Virus record (IMG/VR): IMGVR_UViG_3300015610_000633
Coordinates: 1 to 64,000 of that record
Origin: a virus
Taxonomy: Duplodnaviria; Caudoviricetes
Direction: 5' to 3' (one strand)
Length of the DNA stretch: 64,000 nt
Under the pieces are notes generated by a model. That model saw nothing but the letters and a program-made list of their open reading frames with translations. It was not told the origin of the DNA and made no database searches. Position numbers and translations under genes: made by a program. Each line of letters begins with the position of its first letter. The first letter of the stretch is position 1. Below, one piece after another: positions 13 to 63,477 of this stretch.

Positions 13-32
13 ACGTCTACCCGGTTAGACGT
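13..32. repeat. 20-bp palindrome copy 1
   Basis: ACGTCTACCCGGTTAGACGT on +; abuts the lysin stop codon. Confidence 0.97.
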
Positions 33-808
33 CAACCATCGCTTGCGCGACGTTTTGCGTCCAGTCGGTTGCGCATATCCTCAAGCGTTTGATCGGCCAT
101 GCGATCAAGGCTTTCGGTTATCCACATCTGAACCATATCATTCGCGATCACTCGCGATGTCTTAGGACCTTCGATCGTGATGCCCTCGGGTGATAGTACG
201 CCTTGTTCTATTTCGTCCGGTGTGCCCGCTAGCCAAACAAAATCACTATCCCGACCGTCAGGCAACCTTTCGCCACCATCACCGTCATATTGCCACATGA
301 GCCACCCTGTTGATTGCCACGGCTTCGGTATCAACGGCACCTTCACGCCATAGTGCGCCACCCAAAGATCCAACGTGGTCAACATCGATGTTGACGGGTT
401 GCCTAGCTTCGAGTGCCAAAAATCATAACACGTGTATAGGATCGGCTTGTAGCCTGCTGAGTTGAGCGCAACCAAAAACTTTTCAGCGCTCTTCACCGCT
501 TCGACAGGTCCACAACCTTCGAGTGTTTCGAAGTCAATGACCGGCCTTAGTCGTGTCTTTTTTATGCACTCGATAAACATATCAGCTTGCGTGTATGGGC
601 TATGATCGGCTTCAAAGAACCAATAACAACCCGTCAACAAGCTTGCGCTCTTTGCACCTTCGTTGTGATCGTTGAACGTACCGTCAAACTTTTCACCATG
701 ACCGCCCCTAGCGATCACGAAGTTCACATCATGACGTGCGACGTTAGCCCAATCAATGCCCCGCCCTTGCGCATAGCTGACGTCTATACCGCGCGTTAGC
801 TTGCTCAT
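32..808 (-). CDS. GH25 muramidase endolysin
   Basis: N-terminal GIDVSYAQG, IARGGHG, GCYWF, PVIDFE (DxE catalytic), LWVAHY and WQY..G motifs typical of glycoside hydrolase family 25. Confidence 0.88.
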   Translation of the reverse strand: MSKLTRGIDVSYAQGRGIDWANVARHDVNFVIARGGHGEKFDGTFNDHNEGAKSASLLTGCYWFFEADHSPYTQADMFIECIKKTRLRPVIDFETLEGCGPVEAVKSAEKFLVALNSAGYKPILYTCYDFWHSKLGNPSTSMLTTLDLWVAHYGVKVPLIPKPWQSTGWLMWQYDGDGGERLPDGRDSDFVWLAGTPDEIEQGVLSPEGITIEGPKTSRVIANDMVQMWITESLDRMADQTLEDMRNRLDAKRRASDG

Positions 809-2184
809 GGTGTTACCTCGGTCTTCTCGGTGATCGTCTGTTTACCGCGTCTTACAGTCCAATCGTCGGGATCGGTATCAAGTGCGATCGGCCATTCTCT
901 AAACCGATGTTTGAACACCTTACCGAGTTCGATCACGTTATGCCGTAGGGTCGGGTGAACTGTTTTGCCACTTCTCAGTTCCAGCATGTATACAAACGCA
1001 TCGGCTGGCATGCGTGTGATGTACTGAACCATGAAACCCATCGGGATCATGTACTGAAGTTCAACGCGCATATTGCCCCCTTCATTGCTTTCAACGCGCA
1101 TGTATTGATCCCATGTGTTTTGAACATCTGAAATCAACTTTCTGCCCTCGTCTTCAACGTGTTGCGGTAGTTCTTTCAAGTACCACGCGTGAAACCGTTT
1201 AGGAGTCAACAGGGGCATGGTGGGGGGCGTGTTTCGGTGCCGTTGAATGTCTCGGAACGAACCGAAATCAATCGGTATTGTCATTGTTATCGAAATCGTC
1301 TTACCCAACCAATGCGGGATGCGCGCCCTCGGTGGACGTTTCGACATCAAGTCATAAACACAACTAGCGTGTTTGATTTCTAGAAACTCTGAAGTCGAAG
1401 TAATGAACATATCCAACGGCTTCAACTCAAAATCTTCGTACTTGTACGCGTTCACCGTTTCAAACCACTTGAACTCTTCAACGTGCCGCTTCAAGTCATG
1501 CTCGAAACTTTCGGGAAACTTCTTCGCTAGCAACTCAAATGCATTTTGAGCAAGGTTGCGCACTTCAAGCAACGGGTGAAACGCGAGTTGAGACAGGTGA
1601 TCCCATGCAACGCGCAGTGATGTGTGCCAACTAAGATTCGTTGTAACACCCGCTGGCAACCATGCCCGCATGATGTCGAACGCCCTAGCCTTCACCGCTC
1701 GTTTATAGTCTTCAACATTCTCATCAACATTGATCGGGTGCTTCGCTGCTACCGAAGCTTCGACGATTTCAAGATGCTTTTCGTAGAACGATTTGCACCG
1801 GTTTTGCACACGGATAGCTTCACTATCTTCAACCCCTTCAAACACATACACCATCGGTTGTTCAACCATGTTGATGTAACGCGTTGATGTTTCTTGACCA
1901 TTGTACAGCGGGTGATCTTGTATGGCTTTCGCCGCTAGCATCGATACACCTTCAAAAAACAGTGTAACGGTGCCACAATCCGCAATTGATGGGTGACCAT
2001 AGCCCACATAATACTTGGCCATAAATCGGCCTGAACCGACACGCTGTACCTTTTTGTAATGCTCTTCTACACTCGCCGTTGAACGACTGTACAACGCTTG
2101 CAACATCGCGTTGTCTTGTTCGTTGATGCCTGTACCCAAAAACACCTTTGTTCGTTCGCTTACTACCTTCTTCGCTAGTTCCAT
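805..2184 (-). CDS. thyX: Flavin-dependent thymidylate synthase (long, duplicated-domain ThyX/Thy1 type)
   Basis: YYVGYGHPSIADC, GQETSTRY, FRDIQRHR and YMLELRS motifs; 459 aa is the long two-domain form; GGAGG RBS upstream. Confidence 0.8.
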   Translation of the reverse strand: MELAKKVVSERTKVFLGTGINEQDNAMLQALYSRSTASVEEHYKKVQRVGSGRFMAKYYVGYGHPSIADCGTVTLFFEGVSMLAAKAIQDHPLYNGQETSTRYINMVEQPMVYVFEGVEDSEAIRVQNRCKSFYEKHLEIVEASVAAKHPINVDENVEDYKRAVKARAFDIMRAWLPAGVTTNLSWHTSLRVAWDHLSQLAFHPLLEVRNLAQNAFELLAKKFPESFEHDLKRHVEEFKWFETVNAYKYEDFELKPLDMFITSTSEFLEIKHASCVYDLMSKRPPRARIPHWLGKTISITMTIPIDFGSFRDIQRHRNTPPTMPLLTPKRFHAWYLKELPQHVEDEGRKLISDVQNTWDQYMRVESNEGGNMRVELQYMIPMGFMVQYITRMPADAFVYMLELRSGKTVHPTLRHNVIELGKVFKHRFREWPIALDTDPDDWTVRRGKQTITEKTEVTP

Positions 2185-2207
2185 GGTGGTCTTACCTCCG
2201 ACTCACC

Positions 2208-2217
2208 ATAATGCAGC
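2208..2217 (-). promoter_or_regulatory. GCTGCATWAT promoter motif (thyX)
   Basis: GCTGCATTAT on the coding strand upstream of thyX. Confidence 0.65.
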
Positions 2218-2638: not shown

Positions 2639-2849
2639 GCGCGAACTTGTTGATCCATGATCTCACGTTCCCGGTTGTGCATGTGGTTTGCCATTCTGTG
2701 TTGCACTTATCACACACAGCGAAGATCTTTTGTGGTGCAGGCGCGCCTATAGAATCGGCTTCGCGAGCTTCCCACCCCCCTCGAACATGTAGCGCGAAGT
2801 TTGGCGTATACGTTCCAACTACTGAGTCAGGAAGTTTCAAAAATCCCAT
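2577..2849 (-). CDS. Small hypothetical protein, possible Zn-binding (CDKC ... HLH)
   Basis: ATG start, tight packing with neighbours, CxxC plus HxH. Confidence 0.55.
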   Translation of the reverse strand: MGFLKLPDSVVGTYTPNFALHVRGGWEAREADSIGAPAPQKIFAVCDKCNTEWQTTCTTGNVRSWINKFALAHLHRDPFAEPMGKPGSKM

Positions 2850-3409
2850 GCGAGTTGCCGTTTCTCAATCTTCGTTGAAACCACCGGTTGTTGAACGTCT
2901 ACCCGGTTAGACGTGGGTTCACTATCAACCCAATCAAGTTCACAAACGCGCGCATACAAGCCTTGTGCGACTCGTTCACGCATCGGTACAGCCAACCATG
3001 CATCATCGATTGCAGGGCCATGGTGTGGTGCTTGGTAAAGCCTCGCCATAGCGATCGCGGGTACTTCAACTTCTGCCATACGAACCACCGATCTCGACCG
3101 ATGATCGTAGAACATCAAGTCAACGATCGAAGTGACTACCGTGTTGATGTTGATCGTCTTCTCACCATTGACGATCCTAGCTTCTATCGGGCTTGAGTTG
3201 CGATGAATCTTTGTGACCACCACCGGGCTCGTAGCGTCACGACTAGGCACCAACACAATGCAAGTCGGTGGTGTCAAGCTCGGGTTCCATTGCCACGATC
3301 GCAAGTTCTTACGTCGGGTTTCACTCTCGGTATACGCTCGAACGTGTGGCAGTTTCCAAAGTCGTTCAGCGGGTGCTTCGTTAGACTTTGGGTGCAGTGG
3401 CCTTCGCAT
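2837..3409 (-). CDS. Hypothetical protein containing an in-frame copy of the 20-bp palindrome (TSNRVDV)
   Basis: 190-aa ORF on the coding strand overlapping its neighbours. Confidence 0.6.
   Translation of the reverse strand: MRRPLHPKSNEAPAERLWKLPHVRAYTESETRRKNLRSWQWNPSLTPPTCIVLVPSRDATSPVVVTKIHRNSSPIEARIVNGEKTININTVVTSIVDLMFYDHRSRSVVRMAEVEVPAIAMARLYQAPHHGPAIDDAWLAVPMRERVAQGLYARVCELDWVDSEPTSNRVDVQQPVVSTKIEKRQLAWDF
2895..2914. repeat. 20-bp palindrome copy 2 (intragenic)
   Basis: Exact match; read as TSNRVDV. Confidence 0.97.
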
Positions 3410-4344: not shown

Positions 4345-4717
4345 TGCTCAAGATCTCCATTACGTTCGGGTCAACCGGTGCTTCGGTTGTCACCTGTTCA
4401 TTGACATTATGCAGCCTTACGGGCTCGCTAGCGCGCCAGTTGTTCAACAATGCGTCGGCAATACGATCGGGGTCGTGTTCGGGCTTTATATCAAGTTCTC
4501 GTTCACTCCATTCATACCCACGAAGCCACCCACTTTTGTAACTAGCTTCGGCAAGTTGAGTGCAAAACAATATCCATTCAATGCGGGTTGCTTTCGGGTT
4601 CATTTCAGCGAACACCGCAACGGCATCACCGAGGCGTTTAGGTGGGTTAGGCCCTTCGTAGAAGATGCCCTTGACCTTCTCATACAGTCGACGCAACCAA
4701 CGCGTGAACAAGGTCAT
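4295..4717 (-). CDS. Hypothetical protein at the end of the ParB/PAPS-reductase cassette
   Basis: 4-bp overlap with the upstream ParB-like gene. Confidence 0.6.
   Translation of the reverse strand: MTLFTRWLRRLYEKVKGIFYEGPNPPKRLGDAVAVFAEMNPKATRIEWILFCTQLAEASYKSGWLRGYEWSERELDIKPEHDPDRIADALLNNWRASEPVRLHNVNEQVTTEAPVDPNVMEILSNERQYFENRVGVGPSR
4406..4415 (-). promoter_or_regulatory. GCTGCATWAT promoter motif
   Basis: GCTGCATAAT about 60 nt upstream of ORF 3934..4344. Confidence 0.55.
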
Positions 4718-5346
4718 CTTAGAAGCTCCAAGAGTATCGATCCGCTCTTCTTGTTTTCGATCTTCGCTCGTTCAATCAACAACCGTTTTGCACGATCGCG
4801 TTGATCAACCGAATCGAACTCAATCGACAAGGTAACCGATTTCGCGAACTCGGTGATGTCACTACCGTCGGGTTCAATATCGGGCGGGCTCGCAACATCA
4901 ATGAACCGTTGTTTTTCATCAACGGTGAAACCCATATTTCTAACCTCGTCATCCAACAACCTCGATTCGTTATCCAGTTCAAGCAACAACTCACCTAGCT
5001 TGCGACTGTCGAACTCACCCACAACACGGTTCAACGCTACGTTCAACTTCTTCGCAGTGCGTTCATTCACATCAAGAATAATGCAAGGCACCTTACCCGG
5101 CTTCGTACCTTTCTCTTGATTGATTTCAAGGTATGCACGAAGGCGTTGGTGACCGCCTATCACGATCATGCCTTCGCGTTGAACTATTAGATTCTCAACC
5201 CAACCATGCGTACGAAGCGAAGTCTTCAACGCTTCAAGCATTACTTTCGCGATCTTGCGCGGGTTGTATGGTGCAGGGTTCAAAGAACCCGCGTCTACCA
5301 TCGTGATCTTGTGCGATTTGATCTCGTTCATTGTGTTGTAACCCAT
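4714..5346 (-). CDS. ParB/Srx-like domain protein
   Basis: LNPAPYNPRKI, IGGHQRLRA, LNVALNRVVGEFD; short C-terminal beta-helix-helix (RHH-like) segment. Confidence 0.82.
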   Translation of the reverse strand: MGYNTMNEIKSHKITMVDAGSLNPAPYNPRKIAKVMLEALKTSLRTHGWVENLIVQREGMIVIGGHQRLRAYLEINQEKGTKPGKVPCIILDVNERTAKKLNVALNRVVGEFDSRKLGELLLELDNESRLLDDEVRNMGFTVDEKQRFIDVASPPDIEPDGSDITEFAKSVTLSIEFDSVDQRDRAKRLLIERAKIENKKSGSILLELLR

Positions 5347-5846
5347 CCCTTGCCGTATGACTCTTTACCCATTGATTGAGGCCCCGGTGTTGTGTCGAGC
5401 ATGCGTTTCAACTCTTCGCGATCCATACCAAGAAACCGTTGGATCTGCTTATCATCCAACCCCGATTCACGAAGCGCTTGCGTGATGCTTGCCATCTTCA
5501 AAATGCCATGCTGACCCCTTGCCCTATTGTGCCGAACTGTTGAAGCCATGAGTTGCGCCTCGCTCTTATTTCGAAGCACAACAACAGGTACAAGGTTGTT
5601 TGAAACTTTGGCCACTTGTTGATCTGTTGTGGCCAACGTCCAGCGGTGAAACCCGTCTACTATTTCACCACTTTCACGAACAACGATCGGTTGTGTCCAA
5701 CCATCTTCAAGCAAGCTAGTCTTCAACAACTGAAGTTCAGGACCAAATACATGGTTGGGGTTGTAGTTGTTCGCGTGTAGCGTCTTCGGATCAACCCATT
5801 GCACACTTGCAATCGGGTGAATGTTCTCTTGTTTCTTCTTAGCCAT
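5328..5846 (-). CDS. ibrB: IbrB/YbdM-like ParB-domain protein
   Basis: ANNYNPNHV, GWTQPIVV, IVDGFHRW, STVRHNRARGQH; adjacent to an IbrA-like gene. Confidence 0.85.
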   Translation of the reverse strand: MAKKKQENIHPIASVQWVDPKTLHANNYNPNHVFGPELQLLKTSLLEDGWTQPIVVRESGEIVDGFHRWTLATTDQQVAKVSNNLVPVVVLRNKSEAQLMASTVRHNRARGQHGILKMASITQALRESGLDDKQIQRFLGMDREELKRMLDTTPGPQSMGKESYGKGWVTTQ

Positions 5847-5861
5847 GTTTTCGCGCTCCGT

Positions 5862-7040
5862 TCACTTCTTCACAATACGGTTGCCAGCGGGGCCAACATC
5901 ACCACGATGAAATAGACTGACGTCATACTGCGTTGATAGTCGAGCTTTGAAATCACCGGTTGTAACAATACGGTAGATCGATTGCCACGTTAGCCCCTTA
6001 CCGGTTTCGGGTACGTCTGCATTGTTCGTTGCTCGATTGTGCTTTGCGATCTCTCGCCTTATTCGTTGAGCTATGTGCTTGCGCTCTTCTATCGGCCATG
6101 TTTTCAGCTTCAACATAACCGCTTCTTGCCACGTAAGATCGGCGGGCTTGTCTGCACCTTGGCTTGACAAGTACAACGGGCTTCGACTGTATCGCGCCGC
6201 ACAAGCCACACCCGGTACGCGCTTCAACATCTTTTCAAAAAGTTCAGGCCAGCCTTGCGCATACATCCAAAGCATTTTCATCGGTTCTTGCCCGAACGGT
6301 GGTGCAACACGTTGTGTTGAAGGTGACATGCCTAGTTTGCTCATAACGTCATAAGCATGGTTATAGTCCCAACCTTCGAGATCGGCTGCTGTCCAAACAT
6401 CGAACGCACTCCAATCATAGATCGGTTTGCAATACATGATGTTTTTACCACTAGGCGCGGTATGAATCCAGTTATCTTCGAGCTTGCCCGATACAAGCCA
6501 CTTACGACGCCATGACTCAGCAGCGCGTATACCAAGAATCATGGCAACCCGGCCCCATGATTTCGGTATTACATAGGGGTTCATTTCGGGTATAGGCAAG
6601 CGCTCACTCGGTGCACCTTCGATCGTATGTATGCCTTCTGCGGGCATGACGTTACACCACAACTCGCGATCTTCGGGTGCCCATGGTGACCACCATGCCT
6701 GTTCAGTTGAACACCCGTTACGATGAAGCACGGGGTAACAATACCATCGCAAGTTGATATCAGGTGATTGTGCAACCCTTCGCACATAGTCGATTGTTTC
6801 GGGTACGATCGCTTCTTCATCCCAAAAAATCACATCAAGCGGCAACTGCTTACGCTCACGCGCTACCTTCAACGCGATGTTCAAACATGTTGTTGAATCT
6901 TTGCCACCACTGAACGAAACCACAACACGATCATAACAGTCGTATACGATATTCATTCGCTCAATCGCGAGTTGCATCACATCTTCTTCGACCGTTTTTT
7001 TCTTGTAATACGCTGCTGTTTTTTCTTTGAACAATGTCAT
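5862..7040 (-). CDS. ibrA: PAPS-reductase-family (PP-loop) protein, IbrA/YbdN (DUF3440) type
   Basis: VVVSFSGGKDS PP-loop, FWDEE, LGIRAAES..R, PIYDW..DVW, YNHAYD, QRVAPPF. Confidence 0.85.
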   Translation of the reverse strand: MTLFKEKTAAYYKKKTVEEDVMQLAIERMNIVYDCYDRVVVSFSGGKDSTTCLNIALKVARERKQLPLDVIFWDEEAIVPETIDYVRRVAQSPDINLRWYCYPVLHRNGCSTEQAWWSPWAPEDRELWCNVMPAEGIHTIEGAPSERLPIPEMNPYVIPKSWGRVAMILGIRAAESWRRKWLVSGKLEDNWIHTAPSGKNIMYCKPIYDWSAFDVWTAADLEGWDYNHAYDVMSKLGMSPSTQRVAPPFGQEPMKMLWMYAQGWPELFEKMLKRVPGVACAARYSRSPLYLSSQGADKPADLTWQEAVMLKLKTWPIEERKHIAQRIRREIAKHNRATNNADVPETGKGLTWQSIYRIVTTGDFKARLSTQYDVSLFHRGDVGPAGNRIVKK

Positions 7041-7060
7041 GGTTTCGCTCTCCGTTACTC

Positions 7061-7080
7061 ACGTCTAACCGGGTAGACGT
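7061..7080. repeat. 20-bp palindrome copy 3
   Basis: ACGTCTAACCGGGTAGACGT on +; between the cupin and ibrA-like genes. Confidence 0.97.
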
Positions 7081-7826
7081 CATGCACCGCGTGCACTTGG
7101 CAGCGTGCCGATATAGGTACGGTTCAACATCGGGTGATTTTGATCCGTTGGCCCCCAATCGCTATCAGGGTGAAACGCGATCACATCCATGGTTGAAGGT
7201 GGATCGCTTGTCGGTTCACCATCAGAACAATACCCAAGAACTCGTTCATCGGTTCTAAACGAATGGATCTCTTGTTCGTCCAGCAAGAACACATGGCCCT
7301 TGTTCAAAGGTCGCATCCAACCGACGTTGTTACCCGTAGCGGCTCGCCATACTTGACCACGCCCACCCGAAACAACACCCATACGGATCGATGGGTGGGT
7401 GTGCTGCGTTTGAACGATATCTTCGGGGAAGTGAAGATGGTTCAACACCGGATCACCCTGTCTTGCAGGCTGAACCAACATTGAATCACTACAACCGTCA
7501 ATGTACGAAAGTCGACCCTTCTTCTCAACCTTGCCGATGTTGCACATCGCGCGGTAACCGTAGCGGGTAAACAGTACGAGCAACCCCGATTCAATGCGTA
7601 TGTGAACCTGACCGGGTAGAGCGAAGTAACCCCCTTCGCGCAACATCGCTGTGATGTCATCACGTTCAGAACGAACCGAGCAAGTACCTTCAAGTACATA
7701 CCCGTATTGTGATTGATGCTCGACACCCAACACGTAGAAACCCGGCCCAAACACTTCGAGGGTTGACGGGTACATGGTATGTGATGCTTCGAACTTTACA
7801 CCCGGTTTCGCTATTTCGATCTTCAT
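7080..7826 (-). CDS. Cupin-fold protein with metal-binding His motifs
   Basis: HLHFP...QHTHPSIRMGVVSGGRG and LLDEQEIHSFRT match cupin motifs 1 and 2; the N-terminal half resembles a second beta-barrel. Confidence 0.65.
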   Translation of the reverse strand: MKIEIAKPGVKFEASHTMYPSTLEVFGPGFYVLGVEHQSQYGYVLEGTCSVRSERDDITAMLREGGYFALPGQVHIRIESGLLVLFTRYGYRAMCNIGKVEKKGRLSYIDGCSDSMLVQPARQGDPVLNHLHFPEDIVQTQHTHPSIRMGVVSGGRGQVWRAATGNNVGWMRPLNKGHVFLLDEQEIHSFRTDERVLGYCSDGEPTSDPPSTMDVIAFHPDSDWGPTDQNHPMLNRTYIGTLPSARGA

Positions 7827-13456: not shown

Positions 13457-14728
13457 TCAAAACGGGAAGTCATCACCATCGGCAAGCGTGGTGTTAGGTT
13501 CATCATTGCGCACTGTAGGCAACTGCGCTTGATGTGATTGTGCCTTCATTTCACTGCGCTTGCGTATCGGTTGCGGTGGTGGGGGTGGTGGTGGCGCGGC
13601 TTGCTCGTATACATACCCGCAATGCGGGCACACAGCAGCGGTTTCTGGCATCGCTTGCCCGCATGAGTCACACGCTACCAGTTCAACCGATTGCGCTTGT
13701 TGTGGTGGCTTCTGCGCCGGTTTGGCTGGCACGTCTACCCGGTTAGACGTTTGTTGTTCACCACCGAACTCGTCAACGGCTTTCTTGTTGAAGGTAGGTT
13801 TTTCAGCCTTGACCTTGAAGATACGATCAAGATCAAACATCGCTTGCACTTGCTTCGGCATGTACGCTTCAACGTATGAACGAAGGTGAGCGACATTATA
13901 CGGCGTTACCTCGTCACGATCGTCAGGTGGTTCAGAAAAGATCAACTCTTTGATATCGTCACGCAATGGAACCACACCCGAGCCAATGGGGATCGCGTCG
14001 TATTTTTCCATTGGCATCTTGTCTTTGTAATACTTCCAACGAAACGCATAAGGCGTGACTAGTGGGTTAGCCAATGCAGCGCCGAAGCTTTCACGGGCGT
14101 GATGAATGGCCCCCTTGACCTTATCACCGAGAAGTGATGTTTCGACCGCCAGTTGAACACCATCAGCCGGTTTAGCGTCGTTCACCACTGCGAACACGTA
14201 GAACAGTTTTGCGTTGCTGCTTTCTTGCCATGCTCGCGACATCAACAACCCGTGTGCACTTGCAGCGGTTTGAATGAAGTCAGGGATCTTGTTGCCTTGT
14301 AGAAGCCCACAAATGCCCGCTGCTGTTAGATTAGTTGTTGTGCCCGCGCCGTCGGTGACTGACCACACAGTAGTCATCGGGTGCAAACGTCGACTCATTA
14401 CAGCCTGATAGATCTCTTCAAGCAATACACCGAAAGGGTCGTTCGGTGGTACTTCGCGCTGACCCGCTTGATTGCGTGCATACATTGATTTATGCACGGT
14501 TTCGGGATCATGAGTCACAAAGTATTTCGTCCAAACTTCAGTCTTTTCAACTTTGGTTTTGTCGGTGTACGTAAACGGGATCGGGAGCTTGTAACGATAG
14601 ATCGGTTTCGGTGGGTATTTAGTATGCAGCCAAACAGTGATTGAGCCATCTTTCGTCCACCCACGAAGCACCTTAGAGTGTTTCGCTTTACCCGTGTCAT
14701 GATTCAAGAAGTCATTGATGTCGGACAT
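13457..14728 (-). CDS. Putative single-stranded DNA-binding protein with a C-terminal Zn ribbon
   Basis: Located next to recA; acidic-aromatic tail DGDDFPF; CDSC..CPHC in a disordered tail; start placed at MSDIN. Confidence 0.55.
   Translation of the reverse strand: MSDINDFLNHDTGKAKHSKVLRGWTKDGSITVWLHTKYPPKPIYRYKLPIPFTYTDKTKVEKTEVWTKYFVTHDPETVHKSMYARNQAGQREVPPNDPFGVLLEEIYQAVMSRRLHPMTTVWSVTDGAGTTTNLTAAGICGLLQGNKIPDFIQTAASAHGLLMSRAWQESSNAKLFYVFAVVNDAKPADGVQLAVETSLLGDKVKGAIHHARESFGAALANPLVTPYAFRWKYYKDKMPMEKYDAIPIGSGVVPLRDDIKELIFSEPPDDRDEVTPYNVAHLRSYVEAYMPKQVQAMFDLDRIFKVKAEKPTFNKKAVDEFGGEQQTSNRVDVPAKPAQKPPQQAQSVELVACDSCGQAMPETAAVCPHCGYVYEQAAPPPPPPPQPIRKRSEMKAQSHQAQLPTVRNDEPNTTLADGDDFPF
13731..13750. 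repeat. 20-bp palindrome copy 4 (intragenic)
   Basis: Exact match; TSNRVDV in the SSB-like linker. Confidence 0.97.
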
Positions 14729-14788
14729 TTTCGGAACCTTTGAACGTTGGTTGTTGATGCGAACTGTTTTTGAGTTCGCGACAATCAA

Positions 14789-14798: not shown

Positions 14799-14823
14799 CA
14801 TATCAAACCCCCCGCTACTTTTT

Positions 14824-20016: not shown

Positions 20017-20036
20017 ACGTCTAACCGGGTAGACGT
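20017..20036. repeat. 20-bp palindrome copy 5
   Basis: Exact match; upstream of the sigma factor gene. Confidence 0.97.
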
Positions 20037-22516: not shown

Positions 22517-22876
22517 TCAACCGCTGGTTTTCACGTCTACCCGGTTAGACGTATCACCGAAACGGCGGTGATACTCTTCGACCGAAAGAAACCCGTGTTG
22601 TTTCACCGGGTGATCTTTACGGTGCACTTCGGCGTAACGTTGTCTGCACTTGGCTAGGTTCTTCAGTGTATGCGGGTGAGTTCCGAACTCGAAACAACCG
22701 ATCCCGAACTTCTTACGCTCTTTGAACCACTTGTTGCGACATACCCCCAACGCTTTAGCCTGCTGTCTACCGTTCGGATATTTCTCGATGAACTCGTTCA
22801 TCGCTTGCTTGTCTTGCAACAACTTCGCTAGCAACTCGCATTCATCAAGCGGCGTATGTTTTCGCTTAGTAGCCAT
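22517..22876 (-). CDS. Small basic protein with an HTH-like segment
   Basis: GRQQAKALGVCRNKWFKERKKFG resembles a helix-turn-helix; contains a palindrome copy near its 3' end. Confidence 0.5.
   Translation of the reverse strand: MATKRKHTPLDECELLAKLLQDKQAMNEFIEKYPNGRQQAKALGVCRNKWFKERKKFGIGCFEFGTHPHTLKNLAKCRQRYAEVHRKDHPVKQHGFLSVEEYHRRFGDTSNRVDVKTSG
22533..22552. repeat. 20-bp palindrome copy 6 (intragenic)
   Basis: Exact match; TSNRVDV at the C-terminus of the HTH-like ORF. Confidence 0.97.
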
Positions 22877-26175: not shown

Positions 26176-26195
26176 ACGTCTAACCGGGTAGACGT
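26176..26195. repeat. 20-bp palindrome copy 7
   Basis: Exact match; 5 nt downstream of a promoter motif. Confidence 0.97.
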
Positions 26196-31393: not shown

Positions 31394-31413
31394 ACGTCTA
31401 ACCGGGTAGACGT
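31394..31413. repeat. 20-bp palindrome copy 8
   Basis: Exact match; 5 nt downstream of a promoter motif, upstream of the MTase-helicase. Confidence 0.97.
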
Positions 31414-32914: not shown

Positions 32915-33265
32915 CTTCGAAACCGTAACAAGAAATCGGATCAAAAAATCACGTCTACCCGGTTAGACGTCGGGGCGGGGGGTTGGGGGGTTGGGGCACC
33001 CTGCTTCGGCGTTCCGCCGTTGTTGGCCATGGTTGATTCACGAAAACATCGGGGTTCGTTTTTCCCTTCTCCCCCTGCACCCCCTTATCCCTTTTCAAGA
33101 TTTCACTTCGTGAAATCTTAAGTTTTTGATCTCTTTGATCTTTTTTGATCTTCGGATCTATATGGATCTTAGATCTTATTATTAAGATCAAAAGACTAAC
33201 CGCGCGCATACATACACGCGTGCGCGTACACATACGCGAGAGAAACACAGCGACATATTTTTGAA
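32915..33265. other. Candidate replication origin / divergent control region
   Basis: Largest gene-free stretch; lies between divergent promoters; contains a palindrome copy, two G4 motifs, seven GATC sites in 62 bp and a 38-bp alternating RY tract. Confidence 0.5.
32951..32970. repeat. 20-bp palindrome copy 9
   Basis: Exact match; in the origin-like region next to a G4 motif. Confidence 0.97.
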
Positions 33266-35908: not shown

Positions 35909-35928
35909 ACGTCTAACCGGGTAGACGT
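35909..35928. repeat. 20-bp palindrome copy 10
   Basis: Exact match; upstream of nrdJ. Confidence 0.97.
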
Positions 35929-41876: not shown

Positions 41877-41896
41877 ACGTCTAACCGGGTAGACGT
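41877..41896. repeat. 20-bp palindrome copy 11
   Basis: Exact match; 12 nt before the ATG of the gp25-like gene. Confidence 0.97.
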
Positions 41897-43538: not shown

Positions 43539-43558
43539 ACGTCTAACCGGGTAGACGT
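43539..43558. repeat. 20-bp palindrome copy 12
   Basis: Exact match; intergenic. Confidence 0.97.
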
Positions 43559-49784: not shown

Positions 49785-51497
49785 TCAACCTGCAAGGGTA
49801 GGTATAACCAACACTTTACCAACGGGCAGTGCGGTCATAGTCCACGGCAAACTATTAGATTTCAGGATATCGATCGCGTGGTCTGCAGTGTTGTAGAACT
49901 GCAACGAAACTGAAGAAGCAGTGTCACCCGCCCGAACAATGTACAATGATTCAACCGTTGAAGGTGTGGTGTTCTTGGTACCTTGTGAAGTGGCTTGACC
50001 ACCACTTGAACCTGAACGGCTATACTGCTTCAAAAACTGCAACATGACACTGTTGACTTGTTTAGTAACACCATTGACAGAATCATGACTCTTACCGATC
50101 AAAGTGACGTTACGAAGTATGTCAGCCGCATTGGTTGTTTTGCTTTGTTTTTCTGCAGGTATAGCCGACACGGTTTGTGAATATTGTTTGGCTATTGTTG
50201 ACATATTATCCATGGCTTGCGTGACAGTGTTTTCAACCTGACCCGGTATTGATGCAACCTTGTTCACAAGGTCAGTGAAGTTTTGAAACTGCTTAGCCAT
50301 TTTTTGAAGATCTCGCGTTACTCCCTTCACAAGATTGTTAGGATAGTCCGCAAGATTCGACAGTTGATCAAACGTTAGATTAGGAACCCCTTGTCCCTTC
50401 TTCTTTTTTTGACCATCGGTGTTGATGACAATATCAGTATAAAAGTTGTCTACTAGTTGGTTCATATCAAGCACCAACTGAGAAGCTTCGGAAGCAGGAT
50501 CACCCGTTCGCAACGCAACAACTTTCTGTTGTGTAACGCCGCGACTCATCCAAGCCCATTCAATGCGCCACCCTATATCCGACTCGGTATCGTGGTTGAA
50601 AATAATCGAAGCAGCTCGCCCTTCACGAACCAATGAAAAGAACGCATCGATCTGCGCCGAACTAACCCATGTCACGCGCAAGCGCGCGCCTTGCCTGCAT
50701 ATTTGTTCCATGAGTTCTTTCAAAACCCATGGTGTGGTGATCTTGGTTTCGTTACCCCCTTCGCTATACAATGCGGGTGATTTACCCATCATCGTTCTAC
50801 GCCAAAAACCCTCAAACGTAGTTGGTGGTTCAATAGGGCCAAGAACCTGTTGTGTGGCTTCACTAGCGTTGCCACTATACCATGTAGTTGTGATCCTGTT
50901 CTGTGTGCCCCATGAAACACCCCTATGTGGCAAAGTAGGACCGCGCAGCGTGATCTTACGTTCAAGCCCCGACACTTCTTCGATCGTGATTTCACTAGTG
51001 AAGCTTGAAGGCTGAACAGTTTTGATCGCCATGGTGTGCTTGACGTCTAACCGGGTAGACGTGGTGAATAAATCAGCTTCGGGATTGAGCAGCGCTTGTG
51101 CCCAAACTGACAAGGGTACAAGTCGTTCAGAAAGATCTTCAAGTGTCTTGTCGGCTGCGTCTTTCGGATCTTCGGGAACGTCTGCACCTTCGGCGGCTTC
51201 TTGCGCGGCTGCAACGGCGGCTTCGGCGGCGGCTTGTGCTTCGGGATCTTCCGGGTCGGCTTCAGCTGCTTCAACTGCACCTTCGGCAGTTTCGATCTGG
51301 TCTTCTACTTGATCGATTTCGCTACCTTCGGCTTCACCATCAGCGGGTTCTTCATCACCCGATTCTTCATCATCCTCGGGTGGTGGCAAATCATCGCCTT
51401 CTTCGTTGTCTTCTGTTGGATCAAGAGACTCAAGATCCTCCTCTTCATCATCTTTGCCAAGTATGTTTTTGAGCGCCGAAACGATCTTGTTTGCCAT
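49785..51497 (-). CDS. Tail tube initiator with C-terminal LysM-like domain and an acidic N-terminal extension (possible second start at 51032)
   Basis: YIVRAGDTASSVSLQFY...ILKSN...LPVGKVLVIP; strong AAAGGTGA RBS before MANK. Confidence 0.65.
   Translation of the reverse strand: MANKIVSALKNILGKDDEEEDLESLDPTEDNEEGDDLPPPEDDEESGDEEPADGEAEGSEIDQVEDQIETAEGAVEAAEADPEDPEAQAAAEAAVAAAQEAAEGADVPEDPKDAADKTLEDLSERLVPLSVWAQALLNPEADLFTTSTRLDVKHTMAIKTVQPSSFTSEITIEEVSGLERKITLRGPTLPHRGVSWGTQNRITTTWYSGNASEATQQVLGPIEPPTTFEGFWRRTMMGKSPALYSEGGNETKITTPWVLKELMEQICRQGARLRVTWVSSAQIDAFFSLVREGRAASIIFNHDTESDIGWRIEWAWMSRGVTQQKVVALRTGDPASEASQLVLDMNQLVDNFYTDIVINTDGQKKKKGQGVPNLTFDQLSNLADYPNNLVKGVTRDLQKMAKQFQNFTDLVNKVASIPGQVENTVTQAMDNMSTIAKQYSQTVSAIPAEKQSKTTNAADILRNVTLIGKSHDSVNGVTKQVNSVMLQFLKQYSRSGSSGGQATSQGTKNTTPSTVESLYIVRAGDTASSVSLQFYNTADHAIDILKSNSLPWTMTALPVGKVLVIPTLAG
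51043..51062. repeat. 20-bp palindrome copy 13
   Basis: Exact match; 10 nt before the internal ATG at 51032. Confidence 0.97.
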
Positions 51498-55146: not shown

Positions 55147-55166
55147 ACGTCTAACCGGGTAGACGT
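55147..55166. repeat. 20-bp palindrome copy 14
   Basis: Exact match; between the sheath and tube genes. Confidence 0.97.
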
Positions 55167-55170
55167 CCTT

Positions 55171-57366
55171 TCATGCGGCTTCTGCGACGGTTACTTGTTC
55201 ACCGATCTCGGTTGCGATTGTTATCGAGTCAAACGAAGACAAAGTTCTAACCTTCAACGTTAGGCGGTAGTGACCACGCCCTAGTGAAGTTGCCGTATTG
55301 CCTGACTTTACATCAAGTGAGTAAGAGTCGATTCGTTGTGGTGGTCCGTTCTTCAACGTATCCATCCACACGCGAACATCGGTTGTAAGCGCTACACGTC
55401 GCGCAACGGTCATCAACTGTTTGCCGTATGATTGCGCACGAATGGCGAGTGAATCTTGAATGTAATCGGCCATACGACGCCGTGCGATATTCACGCGACC
55501 GGGGTAGAGAGCCTTATCAACCGAGGTAACACCCGATTGAAAGAAAGCCTGACCATTATCGATCCGCAACGCCATGATACCCGCAGCTTTGAAGCGCTTG
55601 TAATCGTTGATATCGAGTAGTTGCGGGGTCGCAGCGGTTTCGATACCACGAACACCGTCAAGGTAGCTCGTTTGCTGACCGGGGTTTTCTTCGGGTGGTA
55701 GTTGCGACATCACCGAGCAAGCAAACGAATCGGCACCCGAGTCAATGATCCCATCGGCAGTGAACCCGGTACCACCACTAAGCCCAACCGCTGCGATCGT
55801 GGGTACGTAAGATCTCGATTGAGGATAACAGTACACAACGCGATCGGAGCGAGTCGCGGCAACACCCCACGGGGTAGTTGATACCGTTACATTGCTCTTA
55901 TTTGAGCCCATAGGCGCGCGAACTACGGCGGTGCGGCCATAGTGACCGGTTGAACTTGCCGTTAGTGCGTTGTCTCGTAGGGCGAAACGAACGCTATTCG
56001 ATTGACGCGCACACATGATCAAGTTGATCTCTTTGGTGACGTCATTCAACCCGAGTGTGTACGGCAATGCCGCAACATATGCCGCGTCAAGTTGGGTTTC
56101 GGTTAGGCATGCCGACAATGCTGCAAGGTTGATAACTTCGAACTCTCCGACGTCGGGAACATCAACCAACACGTTGACGGTACCCGAAGCCGTTGTTGTT
56201 CCCGTACCATCATCAACGGCGTGTCGAACTTTGATCGCGTAAGCCGTTTCTTGACCTGCAACGATCGTTGTCGTTTGCATGGTCACAAACACCTTGTTAC
56301 CCGACGTTTTCACACGAGTACCAGCGGGTAGTGAACCCTCGAAATCACTGGCGTTGATCACGTCGGTTGTACCAAACCCGAGCGCCGTTGCAGTTCCGCC
56401 CGTTACTTCAAGTGTACCCGTACCCGATGTGGCTACGTTCACGAGTCGCAATCTGCCTTGTGAATCAACACGAACCGCGGCGTTTGATGTTGAAGCCGCA
56501 TCAACGCGGGTGTGCACTTCGGCAGGTGTTACGGTGTTGATATTCGCAACGTTACCCGTACCCGCGGTTGTTGCGGCTGTAAGCCCTAGTCCAGCCAACA
56601 CGCCAGTTGAACCCGACACTACACGAACTTCACCCGCAGTACCCGGTACTCGACCGGTTAGCTTGATTTGACCGCTCGAAACTTCTGCAAACGTGAAACC
56701 AGCGAACTGATTTATACGTGCAACAACTTGTGCAACGGATTGATCCGTTGAGAGAAAAGTTACTTGAAAATCATCGGCATCATCGTAACCGAGTGTCAGG
56801 GTTTCACCACCTGTGAAGGTGGTTGGAAAGGTACCCGAAGCACCGGTAACAGTTGCAGCGACACCTGTGAAGGTAACCGTTACAGGCGTGCCGTCATATT
56901 CGAATGTTAGGGTTTGACCTGATGTAAGTTTGAACGTGAAAGCAGCGGCACCCGTCGCATATGCAAGCGGTGTAAAGTAGACTTCACCAACACTTGTATC
57001 GACACGGCAAAGCATCAACCGAGCAAACCGCTTGCCGTTTATCGCTACATGCCCGTTACCATTCCAATATTCGGGAGTAACCGATGCATCGGAGTAACGA
57101 ACGGTAGCTGAGGGATATTGCCCACGTTGCCCCGCGTAAGTGTAACCGAGACCACCGTATTTTTGAAGAACTTCGGCAACACTCGAAACTTCAACGGTCT
57201 TGTTGAACTCACCATCTTCAAACTCAGCAACAATGCACACGGCACCGGTGCCAGTGCCAGCGATCGCAGCTTCGGGATCAAGATCAAGAATGTTGATCGA
57301 TTCGATCTCAAGCAATACATCGAGACCGGGATCGAAAGTGAAACGACGAACGTAGCTAGATGCCAT
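55171..57366 (-). CDS. Contractile tail sheath protein
   Basis: About 730 aa; SDRVVYCYP, FFQSGVT, NIARRRMADYI C-terminal sheath motifs; start placed at MASSY. Confidence 0.85.
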   Translation of the reverse strand: MASSYVRRFTFDPGLDVLLEIESINILDLDPEAAIAGTGTGAVCIVAEFEDGEFNKTVEVSSVAEVLQKYGGLGYTYAGQRGQYPSATVRYSDASVTPEYWNGNGHVAINGKRFARLMLCRVDTSVGEVYFTPLAYATGAAAFTFKLTSGQTLTFEYDGTPVTVTFTGVAATVTGASGTFPTTFTGGETLTLGYDDADDFQVTFLSTDQSVAQVVARINQFAGFTFAEVSSGQIKLTGRVPGTAGEVRVVSGSTGVLAGLGLTAATTAGTGNVANINTVTPAEVHTRVDAASTSNAAVRVDSQGRLRLVNVATSGTGTLEVTGGTATALGFGTTDVINASDFEGSLPAGTRVKTSGNKVFVTMQTTTIVAGQETAYAIKVRHAVDDGTGTTTASGTVNVLVDVPDVGEFEVINLAALSACLTETQLDAAYVAALPYTLGLNDVTKEINLIMCARQSNSVRFALRDNALTASSTGHYGRTAVVRAPMGSNKSNVTVSTTPWGVAATRSDRVVYCYPQSRSYVPTIAAVGLSGGTGFTADGIIDSGADSFACSVMSQLPPEENPGQQTSYLDGVRGIETAATPQLLDINDYKRFKAAGIMALRIDNGQAFFQSGVTSVDKALYPGRVNIARRRMADYIQDSLAIRAQSYGKQLMTVARRVALTTDVRVWMDTLKNGPPQRIDSYSLDVKSGNTATSLGRGHYRLTLKVRTLSSFDSITIATEIGEQVTVAEAA

Positions 57367-57423
57367 GGTTTGCTCTTTCGGTTGTAGTTGTGTGGTAACA
57401 CTGCCCTGTAAACGCTCCAAAAA

Positions 57424-60658: not shown

Positions 60659-60678
60659 ACGTCTAACCGGGTAAACGT
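60659..60678. repeat. 20-bp palindrome copy 15 (one mismatch)
   Basis: ACGTCTAACCGGGTAAACGT. Confidence 0.92.
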
Positions 60679-60962
60679 CAAAGAAGATCTTTGATTCTAC
60701 CTATCAACAAGCGGATCGCTAGCTCGTTATTATCGCCTTTCGATCTTCGTTTGATCACCGTTGCTAGTTCGTCCGTTAGTGATGAACCAATTGAAGCGTA
60801 GTTCATCACATAACTGTCACCATTGTAGTTATTCCAAATAGCATCGGCATGCTTTGAATCGGTCGAACTAACGATCGTATCACCCGGTTTGAACGTTTGA
60901 CTAGTGCCATCAAACACCGCTGTGAAGCCTACGAGAACAAGCATTTTTGCAGGTGCAGACAT
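60678..60962 (-). CDS. Small hypothetical protein
   Basis: Start placed at MSAP, downstream of the capsid terminator. Confidence 0.5.
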   Translation of the reverse strand: MSAPAKMLVLVGFTAVFDGTSQTFKPGDTIVSSTDSKHADAIWNNYNGDSYVMNYASIGSSLTDELATVIKRRSKGDNNELAIRLLIGRIKDLL

Positions 60963-60976
60963 GTTGTGTTTACTCC

Positions 60977-61002
60977 AAAAAGAAAGGCCCCCGAAGGGCC
61001 TT
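60977..61002 (-). terminator. Rho-independent terminator after the major capsid gene
   Basis: AAGGCCC-TTCG-GGGGCCTT (C-UUCG-G tetraloop) plus TCTTTTT. Confidence 0.82.
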
Positions 61003-61030
61003 GTTGTGGTTGTGGGTAACTGCGAACTAA

Positions 61031-62422
61031 TCAACCGATTGCGTGCTCAATCGCGATCGCTCGCTTGAAGCGTTGCGGACCACCCGCCCCGATATCCGAA
61101 GGCACCGGGAACGATGTTGAGATTGACCACGTTGTTGCAACGATATCTTGCAAACGGTTTTGTGGTGCGCGCATGATCAACCGAATGCGATCGGTACTGA
61201 CTTGAATGTTGTTGTTGATGATGTCGAACTCGCCTTGCTTGCCGTTCAACCCGGCTTCGCTCACGTAGTTCGTCGCTTCATCAAGCCCACGTTCATAAAT
61301 GCAGTGACGACCGGTGAGGATCATACGACCGATCAACGTACCATCTTCGTTGATGGTTTCTGCACCGATGTCGCGGCTGTACTGTGCATTGGTACCCGTT
61401 GAGACTGCAGTACCCGAGTTCACAGAATCGGGGGATTCTGTGTTCATGATGAACATGACGCCGCCAAGTGTACCGATGAAGCCCTCGCGATATATCGCAT
61501 GTTCAGGCAACGCAGTGTTCAAACGTTGGAACGCGGGATCTGCGAACACTTGCGCGTTAGCAAGTGGCGAAATGTGGCAGTGAAACAAACCGTCCGGATG
61601 CGGTTGAACGTTTGCTTGGCGTAGGTACGCCGTAGCGTTGATCGCGTCTTGCAATGAGAAGATATCGCCCGGCCCGATGGCATCGATCGAAGCACCACCA
61701 CCCGCGCGAAGAACGCGAGGCGCAGCGGATGAAGTAACGGCAACGCGAGCGGCAACACCCGAACCACCGAGAGCAGCCGACAAGAACAAGGTACCCGGCC
61801 CGCTTGGATCGGTAGGATCATCGGGCAAAGCACCGATCACATTACGGTTGCCGATACCCGCGATTTTGACCTGCAAGGGGTAAGCAGGGGATACGGGCAT
61901 AGCACGTGCCGATTGCAAAACGATCAACACATCGGTGAAGCCGTTGAGCGCTGCAACGTGAATGGTTGTTGCACCCGCACCGGCTGACTCAGTTGTTACT
62001 GTATGACCCGACAAATACGACTTGAAGAGTTGATTACGTGGCAAACGGTTGACCGATTGACCGGCCTGCAATCCGAGCGTTTGAATATTGCGCATAAACA
62101 GGTTAGCCGCAGCGGTTGCGCTTGTCGGCATCTGTGTATCCATGGTGTCAGCGTAACGGCCTAGTGTAGCCGTCCACTGCTCATACGTTGGGGTTTTCGG
62201 TGAAGGGTCAGTACCGGGTGTGATTGGGGTTGTGTTGGGTGGCAACAAACCCGCGCGAGACATCACGATTTCTTCACCGGTGTTAGCCCCCCACTCTTCG
62301 AAGGTTGCTTCTTGTCGATATGCGAGGGTTGGAAACAACGCATCATGAAAGCCGCGTTCGATCAACCCTTTTTGAACCATGTCGAGAATAACTGGGGGAA
62401 TGCCTACGACTACGCCTGCCAT
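61031..62422 (-). CDS. Major capsid protein
   Basis: 463 aa after the scaffold gene and before a strong terminator; HISP....Q..ADP.F, GFIGTLGGVMF pattern. Confidence 0.8.
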   Translation of the reverse strand: MAGVVVGIPPVILDMVQKGLIERGFHDALFPTLAYRQEATFEEWGANTGEEIVMSRAGLLPPNTTPITPGTDPSPKTPTYEQWTATLGRYADTMDTQMPTSATAAANLFMRNIQTLGLQAGQSVNRLPRNQLFKSYLSGHTVTTESAGAGATTIHVAALNGFTDVLIVLQSARAMPVSPAYPLQVKIAGIGNRNVIGALPDDPTDPSGPGTLFLSAALGGSGVAARVAVTSSAAPRVLRAGGGASIDAIGPGDIFSLQDAINATAYLRQANVQPHPDGLFHCHISPLANAQVFADPAFQRLNTALPEHAIYREGFIGTLGGVMFIMNTESPDSVNSGTAVSTGTNAQYSRDIGAETINEDGTLIGRMILTGRHCIYERGLDEATNYVSEAGLNGKQGEFDIINNNIQVSTDRIRLIMRAPQNRLQDIVATTWSISTSFPVPSDIGAGGPQRFKRAIAIEHAIG

Positions 62423-62549
62423 GTGTTTAGACCTTTCGTGTGAGATTGTCTCAGCCTTGAAGGGTCCGACTATTAGAAACCGGTCGTTCGGCGTAGGCTA
62501 GACTTAGTACCCTTGAACGACGCCCCCTAGCGCCGTCAAGTTCCAAACA

Positions 62550-63437
62550 TCAAACGTTGATACCCATCGACTTCTTGAGTTGTTCGAACTCTTGTTTGGT
62601 CATCGAGTTCGGCTTACCCGGTCGAACGTCTTTACCGTTGATCATCGTGGGTGCATTGGTTCCCGAAGGTTGCGGTGTTGGCCGCGCACCTTTCGGCCCC
62701 GTCGTTACCCCTACTTTCGGTTTAGCTTGCGGTTTAGGTGCAGGCTTAGGGTCAGCAGCGGGTACACTCGGTGCGACCGGTGAAGCGGCATACACGGGGT
62801 TTTTTTGAATGTACTTCTTGAACCATTGTTCAAGGTGTTTTTCGGTGAACTGTGACAACTGCTTTTCTGTGTAGTTACTGGTCAAGTCTTCGGCCAAGTC
62901 GCGCAACACATGCCTAGCGTAAGCCATGTTGATGTGTTTTGCGGCTATACCCTTGATCATACTACCGGCTTCGGCTGCCGTCGTTTGACGTTGAAGCTTG
63001 TTGTATTTTTGCTGCCACGTTTGAAGCTCTTTGCGCGCGTCTTCAGTAGCTTTTCGTTCGCGCTCGATTTCACTCATGCGCGCCTTCTCTGCTTCTTCGC
63101 GCTCTTTCTTCATCGACTCATACTCAGTCTTCATCTTCAAAACTTCTTGAACGTTATCCGTTCCAAAAAGTTTTTTCAGTTGCGACCTTTGAAGTCGATT
63201 CATGCGCTCGATGAACGCGTCATATGGCAGAGAAATCAAACCCTTCTCATCCATACGTTGCGTTACATCTTTCATATCATCGGGCAGAAGCCTCGCTACG
63301 TCATCGCGACTTAGCGAAGGCTTAGGCGATGGTTTATCAACAGGCTTAGTTTCGGGTTTTTCAGGCGATGATGGTGGCGCCACACCATCGCCCGCGGGTG
63401 CTTGTTGTTGCTGCTGTGTAGGGTTGGGTTCAGGCAT
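62550..63437 (-). CDS. Capsid scaffolding protein
   Basis: P/Q-rich N-terminus, central coiled coil, P/K-rich C-terminus; upstream of the capsid gene. Confidence 0.7.
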   Translation of the reverse strand: MPEPNPTQQQQQAPAGDGVAPPSSPEKPETKPVDKPSPKPSLSRDDVARLLPDDMKDVTQRMDEKGLISLPYDAFIERMNRLQRSQLKKLFGTDNVQEVLKMKTEYESMKKEREEAEKARMSEIERERKATEDARKELQTWQQKYNKLQRQTTAAEAGSMIKGIAAKHINMAYARHVLRDLAEDLTSNYTEKQLSQFTEKHLEQWFKKYIQKNPVYAASPVAPSVPAADPKPAPKPQAKPKVGVTTGPKGARPTPQPSGTNAPTMINGKDVRPGKPNSMTKQEFEQLKKSMGINV

Positions 63438-63457
63438 TTTTCAAAGCTCCGTTGTTC

Positions 63458-63477
63458 ACGTCTAACCGGGTAGACGT
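63458..63477. repeat. 20-bp palindrome copy 16
   Basis: Exact match; upstream of the scaffold gene. Confidence 0.97.

Follow-up and report, generated by a model that had tools for sequence, protein, structure and literature searches.

Copies and sequence of the palindrome in G000

The window analysed here, 64,000 nucleotides in length, comprises the first 64 kb of a 73,699-bp IMG/VR viral contig (IMGVR_UViG_3300015610_000633; 81% complete as estimated by CheckV) from a tailed phage designated G000. It carries 15 exact copies and one single-mismatch copy of the 20-mer ACGTCTACCCGGTTAGACGT, an imperfect palindrome for which the chance expectation is 0 matches in dinucleotide-preserving shuffles. 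All 16 copies listed in an initial annotation of the window were located, including the variant at 60659, in which C5 is replaced by T on the gene-sense strand. A scan of the entire contig raised the number to 18 copies, 17 of them exact; the two located beyond the window, at 71092 and 72918, are both exact.

As described in the initial annotation, the arms of the 20-mer are perfect 7-bp inverted repeats, and the centre CCCGGT breaks the full palindrome at one position pair (8/13), the same change being present in every copy. The sequences flanking the copies differ and the 20-mer alone is conserved; hence the copies are not duplicated segments, again as proposed earlier. On the plus strand of the window, 5 copies (13, 2895, 13731, 22533 and 32951) have the forward and 11 the reverse orientation. 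Relative to the genes of the whole contig, 11 copies are oriented one way and 7 the other way. No further occurrence of the exact 20-mer was found in IMG/VR, in JGI metagenome contigs or in 185,579 GTDB species genomes. G runs (GGGG repeats, up to 10 G) directly adjoin two of the copies, at positions 32971–33000 of the window and 72890–72917 of the record.

Nearly all genes of G000 lie on the minus strand. Those for replication and repair encode a family B DNA polymerase (PolB), DnaB-like and other helicases, a primase, and RecA-like and SbcCD-like proteins, and those for nucleotide metabolism a ribonucleotide reductase, a thymidylate-synthase-like protein, a dNMP kinase and a dCMP deaminase. 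Structural and lysis genes encode baseplate proteins, the major capsid protein and a GH25 lysozyme. The tail sheath and tube were putatively assigned from gene order only, and the 749-aa gene 55171–57420, which has no family match, is the presumed sheath gene by its position. G000 also encodes a methyltransferase-SNF2 fusion, and an IbrA/IbrB-like cassette at 4714–8521 includes genes for three ParB_N proteins, a cupin-like protein and a PAPS-reductase-like protein, with one palindrome inside. Between this cassette and the SbcC-like gene, the minus-strand gene 8553–9080 encodes a protein of the phage PDDEXK endonuclease family PF24608 (E 5.5e-30). Pfam and PHROG scans of ~60 proteins revealed no repressor, integrase, RNA polymerase or transposase.

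Lineage-specific palindromes in related phages

No nucleotide match of G000 to isolated phages was obtained by megablast, and the G000 capsid protein is at best 27–30% identical to capsid proteins of isolates (Streptomyces, Komagataeibacter and Ralstonia phages). A single-protein scan of IMG/VR with PolB gave no relatives. The capsid protein has more than 600 metagenomic homologues, the nearest being 83%, 73% and 65% identical, and 80 IMG/VR loci were taken for comparison. About 35 of these 80 loci include a repeated palindrome of their own.

Sixteen near-complete relatives, whose core proteins are 40–46% identical to those of G000, were compared further. The initial annotation had allowed that related phages might lack the motif while keeping synteny. 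The exact 20-mer is indeed not shared, but 15 of the 16 relatives have one dominant, lineage-specific palindrome each, 14–30 bp in length and present in 8–31 mostly exact copies, partly at the same junctions as in G000. In two genomes all copies are exact (26/26 and 31/31). The palindrome of G011, one of these 15, is imperfect, and this genome was excluded from the spacing, junction and centre-symmetry counts given below. Given that the core proteins are only 40–46% identical, the trait is old.

Sister genomes share palindrome cores, while more distant genomes share centres or arms only. The palindromes change gradually along the core-protein tree, drifting with the phage lineage, as would be expected if the reader were inherited vertically. 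Although the palindrome sequences differ, some junctions carry a site in as many as about half of the genomes; many sites are lineage-specific. Junction occupancy is thus only partly conserved, which indicates that sites turn over. Genomes of the family span 49% to 71% in GC content, and the hosts are therefore probably diverse. Direct terminal repeats were found in four relatives; with these repeats, and with no integrase among the scanned proteins, the phages look virulent.

The remaining near-complete relative, G006 (97% complete), has no such palindrome. Its only repeat, in the 26.5–38 kb region (loci L119), consists of six clustered cassettes of ~70 nt, each with a hairpin followed by a T run, a TTGACT-type −35 element and a TATGGT-type −10 element, which resemble the PeSL promoter/terminator cassettes of T4-type phages. 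This repeat was rejected as a replacement network, being a set of unrelated promoter/terminator cassettes confined to one region.

Placement relative to genes and promoters

In G000, 16 of the 18 copies lie at gene boundaries, and 13 are followed within 30 nt by a start codon; in several, the first base also belongs to the preceding stop codon (Table 1). Three or four copies are in frame inside open reading frames (ORFs), namely those at 2895, 13731, 22533 and 51043. The last of these is intragenic by the longest ORF only, as the ATG at 51032 is the start that agrees with homologues of 394–417 aa. Over the genomes compared, sites most often lie −3 to +3 nt from a stop codon and 10–40 nt before a start codon.

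In 7/20, 7/15 and 2/6 cases, a strand-specific −10-like motif (TGCATAATG in G000, GGCATAA-type in relatives) has a palindrome no more than 45 nt away; the null expectation is 0.1–0.5. In the form (GC)TGCATAATG, the motif occurs in G000 at 4405, 13391, 19381, 26200, 27663 and 31418, all on the minus strand and always on the coding strand, and it often overlaps a TAATG stop/start junction. The related GGCATAA-type motifs occur 15–20 times in relatives G002 and G003. The motif looks like a phage-specific −10-type promoter element. Strict sigma-70-type promoters were also found after palindromes; in 7 of 8 cases the −35 element begins 4–8 nt after the palindrome, and these promoters lead into leaderless ATGs. 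The TATAGC box that follows copy 12 and the ATG beyond it likewise look like a leaderless promoter. The palindrome itself was rejected as a promoter, since no conserved −35 element lies upstream and only 2 of the 18 sites have a −10 element spaced so that the right arm could act as −35.

In relatives G003 (loci L103–L107), G007 and G010, many genes start 6–7 nt after a TAnnnT −10 box, i.e. have leaderless messages. Such messages are typical of high-GC hosts such as Actinobacteria. The 208-aa protein encoded by 19382–20008 (minus strand), which has homologues in 13 of the 16 near-complete relatives, shows a weak match to sigma-70 region 2 (E 1e-4) and could be a phage sigma factor resembling T4 gp55.

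Table 1. Palindrome copies in the window, the candidate reader gene and contig junctions at palindrome ends
Feature	Position	Strand	Context
Copy 1, exact	13..32	+	Overlaps last stop-codon base of GH25 lysozyme gene (32-808, minus strand)
Copy 2, exact	2895..2914	+	In 3' end of ORF 2837-3409; 45 nt upstream of start of gene 2577-2849
Copy 3, exact	7061..7080	-	Abuts stop of cupin-like gene 7080-7826; 20 nt upstream of ATG of PAPS-reductase-like gene 5862-7040
Copy 4, exact	13731..13750	+	In frame within 449-aa zinc-ribbon ORF 13457-14806
Copy 5, exact	20017..20036	-	Between helicase gene 20084-22108 and sigma-like gene 19382-20008; 8-17 nt before start of the latter
Copy 6, exact	22533..22552	+	Within last codons of Fis-like helix-turn-helix gene 22517-22876
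Copy 7, exact	26176..26195	-	16 nt after helicase gene 26212-27726; 15 nt before ATG at 26160; -10-like motif TGCATAATG 4 nt upstream
Copy 8, exact	31394..31413	-	18 nt before ATG at 31375 (methyltransferase-SNF2 gene); -10-like motif TGCATAATG 4 nt upstream
Copy 9, exact	32951..32970	+	In sole divergent intergenic region, 32061-32903 (minus) / 33280-33960 (plus)
Copy 10, exact	35909..35928	-	5 nt after gene 35934-36668; upstream of ribonucleotide reductase gene
Copy 11, exact	41877..41896	-	12 nt before ATG at 41864 of baseplate gene
Copy 12, exact	43539..43558	-	Abuts stop of 43558-44253; followed by TATAGC, 6 nt, ATG
Copy 13, exact	51043..51062	-	10 nt before ATG at 51032; junction occupied in 7/13 genomes
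Copy 14, exact	55147..55166	-	4 nt after 749-aa gene 55171-57420; 14 nt before ATG at 55132
Copy 15, one mismatch	60659..60678	-	Abuts stop of 60678-61034; 19 nt before ATG at 60639
Copy 16, exact	63458..63477	-	9 nt after gene 63487-64161; 20 nt before ATG at 63437
Candidate reader, 119-aa Fis/NtrC-type helix-turn-helix protein	22517..22876	-	Directly downstream of primase gene, as in relatives
Contig junctions	43559, 51040, 51064, 60685, 63456, 63478		Palindrome ends

Spacing and copies inside long genes

The gaps between copies in the window range from 1557 to 7504 bp with a mean of ~4.2 kb. The initial annotation had regarded this spacing as even, and the claim held when tested against random placement: in G000 the coefficient of variation (CV) of the gaps is 0.47, compared with 0.93 when gene junctions are picked at random (p=0.001). 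The largest gap, too, falls below expectation (p=0.007). In 15 genomes the mean CV of the gaps is 0.54, compared with 0.90 for random junctions, with p<=0.003 in 10 of the 15, and the maximum gaps are short. The number of copies, their spread over the replication and structural modules and their even spacing support the proposal, also made in the initial annotation, of a genome-wide site set for one high-specificity reader.

Some copies lie within long genes. In five genomes the palindrome of the lineage occurs in frame in the same C-terminal linker of PolB, and in-frame copies are present in the SbcC coiled coil, also in five genomes. Such in-frame copies agree with a requirement for a site in each stretch of the genome.

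Symmetry of the centre and avoidance of restriction sites

In 13 of the 15 tabulated genomes, the hexamer at the centre forms a palindrome by itself. Self-complementary centres favour recognition of double-stranded DNA by a dimer and disfavour a role as an RNA loop, which needs no self-complementarity. Imperfect copies carry single uncompensated changes, mostly at the outermost positions, and in a lineage with variable end positions both ends vary independently.

A hairpin in the polycistronic transcripts might terminate or attenuate transcription, mark a processing site, stabilise a 5' or 3' end, or be recognised by an RNA-binding protein. Such a role would agree with the folding of the 20-mer into a 7-bp stem with a 6-nt loop. 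It would agree also with the common orientation of 11 of the 18 copies relative to the genes, mostly just 5' of ribosome-binding regions, with the orientation bias of 24:7 in G002, and with the variant copy at 60659, where pairing is kept as a U-G wobble in the sense RNA. But the G000 hairpin is weak (~−8 kcal/mol) and unexceptional compared with shuffles at 3 of 4 sites, and no T tract follows the palindrome at any G000 copy; an intrinsic (rho-independent) terminator was rejected on these grounds. Moreover, in-frame copies would terminate or cut the mRNA of the essential PolB gene, variant copies lack compensatory changes, and structure alone requires no sequence identity within a genome. Hence the RNA hairpin signal that had been listed in the initial annotation is disfavoured by the self-complementary centres in relatives, and we regard it as improbable.

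The asymmetric centre in G000 had been taken to give the site a polarity. Outside the palindromes, CCCGGG is absent from G000 (0 compared with 17.6 expected), whereas ACCGGT is not avoided (48 compared with 56). In the clade nearest to G000 the palindromes have CCCGGG centres, and CCCGGG is not avoided there. The centre in G002, the other asymmetric lineage, is one change away from CACGTG, which occurs in that genome 3 times compared with 23.5 expected. The simplest reading of these sequences is a one-sided change, made at every copy of a site once centred on CCCGGG, that would evade a host restriction enzyme and preserve as much of the site as possible. The orientation split of 11:7 in G000 fits a random choice of the edited half, although the bias of 24:7 in G002 is not accounted for in this way. 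A functional polarity of the site is therefore disfavoured, its asymmetry being accounted for by strict CCCGGG avoidance in G000.

Other short palindromes are also depleted in the G000 window. AATT occurs 6 times compared with 189 expected and TTAA 3 times compared with 111 expected, and CCCGGG, GGATCC, CTCGAG, GGGCCC, CCTAGG, GAGCTC and AGGCCT have zero copies; these values indicate heavy restriction avoidance.

Candidate reader proteins

Five proteins had been proposed in the initial annotation as binders of the 20-mer, and one of them, encoded by 22517–22876, gained support as an HTH_8/Fis-like protein; the other four gained none. In nearly all genomes, a small helix-turn-helix (HTH) protein is encoded at a syntenic position immediately downstream of the primase gene. 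Of 11 aligned members of this family, seven match Pfam HTH_8 (PF02954; best E 1.4e-6), and a profile of the family compared with solved structures matched Fis best (E 1e-4), with NtrC-type domains also among its best relatives. The G000 protein alone has only an HTH_50 match with E 0.007, below the cut-off, and among the fragmentary relatives only three further Fis-like records were found. HTH_8 members of the Fis/NtrC type are dimers that bind dyad-symmetric sites of 15–17 bp with flanking contacts. Thus, the 22517–22876 protein is a reasonable candidate for the reader of the 20-mer.

Loading of phage ParB/KorB-like CTPase clamps at the sites, or their binding by a host regulator, was considered as well. 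Three ParB_N proteins are encoded at 4714–8521 with one palindrome within the cassette, and spacing of a few kb would suit sliding clamps of the ParB/KorB type. However, the ParB_N clades have a patchy distribution among relatives: G001 has 23 sites but no ParB_N protein, G006 has ParB_N but no site, and the clade of the 4714–5346 and 7823–8521 proteins is missing from about half of the palindrome-bearing genomes. ParB_N proteins were rejected as readers because of this distribution. As to a host regulator, the exact 20-mer occurs in none of the 185,579 species genomes, and the different site of each relative follows the phage phylogeny, which fits a phage factor better than a host one. A role as ParB loading sites, suggested in the initial annotation, was accordingly not borne out, and either form of this explanation is very improbable.

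No clean candidate was found, by BLAST families and then by hidden Markov models, among families that are present together with palindromes and absent from G006. Family F8 (25744–26160) is often preceded by a site but is well conserved, present in G006 and without a DNA-binding signature, and was rejected. The best candidate by phyletic distribution, fam47 (~200 aa, with an HTH-like N-terminus and possibly the small terminase subunit), is missing from G000 and G002 and was rejected too. The Atlas model of the 33280–33960 protein (pLDDT 0.27) was uninformative.

Contig junctions at the palindrome

The sequencing runs containing G000 are wastewater metagenomes. Contigs of low depth in the probable source metagenome run from the flank of one copy into that of a different one, and the switch falls exactly at the palindrome. 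Of the 6 palindrome-boundary loose ends listed for the source run, 4 map to other copies. These junction contigs continue with the flanks of the copies at 41877, 13731 (inverted), 71092 and 20017, and the other two with flanks outside the G000 contig, perhaps from the missing 19% of the genome. The joined contigs may be real recombinants or library chimeras formed at the 20-bp repeat.

Reads or contigs that join different copies would be expected of repeats that are selfish or passively homogenised and do little for the phage by themselves, either REP-like mobile palindromes or gene-conversion products. Such an origin would also agree with copies that are near-identical within a genome and different between lineages, with the same asymmetric centre in all copies, with sites gained and lost at many junctions, and with in-frame insertions in genes, which recall the Rickettsia palindromic elements. 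Yet no RAYT/HUH transposase was seen among the proteins scanned, and the unit is merely 20 bp with no flanking tag common to the lineages. The spacing is regular and unclumped, lineages whose palindromes differ in sequence place them at the same hot junctions and in the same PolB linker, selection can account for the uniform asymmetry, and the palindromes evolve gradually with the core tree. Taken together, a selfish or passive origin appears quite improbable.

Proposed function

From the evidence above we infer binding by a protein, a Fis-like identity of that protein and a transcriptional output. We tentatively propose, at a level somewhat short of probable, that the 20-mers are double-stranded DNA sites for a dimeric phage binder that co-evolves with its sites and acts on transcription-unit boundaries and promoters. 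One phage-encoded protein of two-fold symmetry would bind all the 20-mers with high affinity, and its specificity would drift together with all its sites across the phage family. Once bound, this protein would obstruct or help the promoters nearby and stop read-through, so that the genome, transcribed almost entirely in one direction, would be divided into ~20–30 units with a logic like that of operators and stoperators.

Several findings weigh against this proposal. Relative to the promoter, a site may have its centre near −51 or near −28 or may lie downstream of the −10-like motif, with no uniform activation geometry, and most G000 sites have no recognisable adjoining promoter. All 20 positions are invariant, including the centre, which is stricter than in most operator sets. 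Given the virulent appearance of the phages, the analogy with a lysogenic repressor does not apply. The HTH candidate has a weak syntenic copy in the palindrome-less G006 and was undetected in the palindrome-bearing G005, and many genomes have two HTH paralogues, which blurs covariation between helix and site; a pairing of Arg at the position equivalent to Fis R85 with G at about −7, noticed post hoc, carries no weight as evidence. Finally, even spacing and in-frame copies in PolB and SbcC are unnecessary for promoter control and fit a role at the DNA level at least equally.

The same reader could instead have an architectural or DNA-metabolic job. The sites would then be docking or bending points for a Fis-like nucleoid-associated protein and would serve genome organisation and compaction, self-marking, or the seeding of replication or recombination at intervals. 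Spacing that is far more regular than that of random junctions in most genomes, with short maximum gaps, agrees with such a job, as do in-frame copies in permissive linkers, as if sites were required regardless of gene boundaries, the position of the candidate reader gene in a replication module beside primase and helicase genes, and the contigs joined at the palindrome. Nevertheless, the sites are tightly tied to stop and start codons and to promoter-like motifs, the regular spacing could mirror operon sizes, the chimeric contigs may be library artefacts, and no known phage system of this type requires 20 invariant bp. We consider the architectural or DNA-metabolic job, in all its forms, rather unlikely.

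More speculatively, the palindromes could be a private, rapidly co-evolving address code, placed every ~3–6 kb, essential genes included, and read by the phage Fis-like protein, that organises the replicating chromosome through looping, insulation, self-marking or the seeding of recombination and is visibly reshaped by host restriction. The network would then be a chromatin-organising system of the phage rather than a collection of promoter operators. As a whole, this idea is an unlikely one.

Comparison with known systems

The sites of the transcriptional proposal may be compared first with the stoperators of phage L5 (Cluster A) and the C1 operators of P1, which comprise 20–30 dispersed sites for one phage protein, often in short intergenic gaps or at stop/start codons. 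Those sites are asymmetric, 13–17 bp in length and orientation-dependent; they belong to temperate phages and are bound by lysogenic repressors, and their specificity co-evolves with the binder between subclusters. The G000-family sites are similarly dispersed in intergenic gaps and at stop/start codons, but they are palindromic in 13 of the 15 genomes and split 11:7 in orientation in G000, and the phages look virulent, with no repressor/integrase module found among the scanned proteins. In the temperate Streptomyces phage phiC31, the CIRs are highly conserved, repressor-bound intergenic palindromes located genome-wide beside promoters. The G000 palindromes resemble them in conservation and in position, whereas the sequences and the phage family are unrelated.

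In the KorB-OB system of RK2 and in ParB-parS systems, a dozen or more identical palindromic sites are dispersed on the replicon, some at promoters and some far from them. The dispersed palindromes of G000 are similar, but the ParB_N proteins in the G000 family do not co-occur with palindromes. Fis binds degenerate sites; the G000 candidate is likewise small, with an HTH_8-type signature based on weak profile scores, whereas the G000 sites are invariant.

The PeSL cassettes of T4-type phages are degenerate composites of ~100 bp that consist of a host sigma-70 promoter and a stem-loop and are concentrated in hyperplastic regions, and their copies act as recombination points (PMC2839356, PMC4122927). 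Like them, the G000 palindromes are repeated intergenic stem-loop elements adjoining promoters, but only the exact 20-mer is conserved in G000, and it is spread evenly over all modules. REP/RAYT elements are described in PMC3733652 as associated with an HUH (Y1) transposase and as carrying a conserved tag, GTAG or CGTC, on one side. The G000 element starts with A-CGTC, the ends of the palindromes in relatives are unrelated, and no transposase-like match was found among the scanned proteins.

Cluster O mycobacteriophages (Corndog and relatives) carry more than 30 genome-wide copies of a 17-bp dyad repeat with invariant arms, many of them intergenic or near gene starts and some intragenic, with no meaningful orientation and with unknown function and reader (PMC4351075). 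G000 shares with them one near-identical inverted repeat in many copies throughout a phage genome. The central 3 bp vary in Cluster O whereas all 20 positions are fixed in G000, the sequences differ, and G000 is unrelated by matches to isolated phages. Since the Cluster O dyad repeats have already been described (PMC4351075), the term undescribed system, which had been applied to the G000 network, is too strong. The kind of feature is already known, and the G000 family adds a variant with even spacing and lineage-specific sequences. What goes beyond Cluster O is that the trait was traced through a deep uncultured family with lineage-specific sequences and regular spacing, and that the asymmetry of the G000 site is explained by restriction avoidance.

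The reader and purpose of dispersed phage dyad repeats have so far been unknown, and the G000 family offers a test bed for finding the reader, as dozens of related genomes with different palindromes constitute a natural experiment for swaps of site and protein specificity. Any mechanism is constrained by the regular spacing, the shared in-frame sites in the PolB linker and a centre visibly altered so as to evade a restriction site. Should the Fis-like protein be the reader, the family would provide a simple orthogonal set of pairs of proteins and 20-bp sites, as well as a handle on how virulent phages partition long one-direction genomes.

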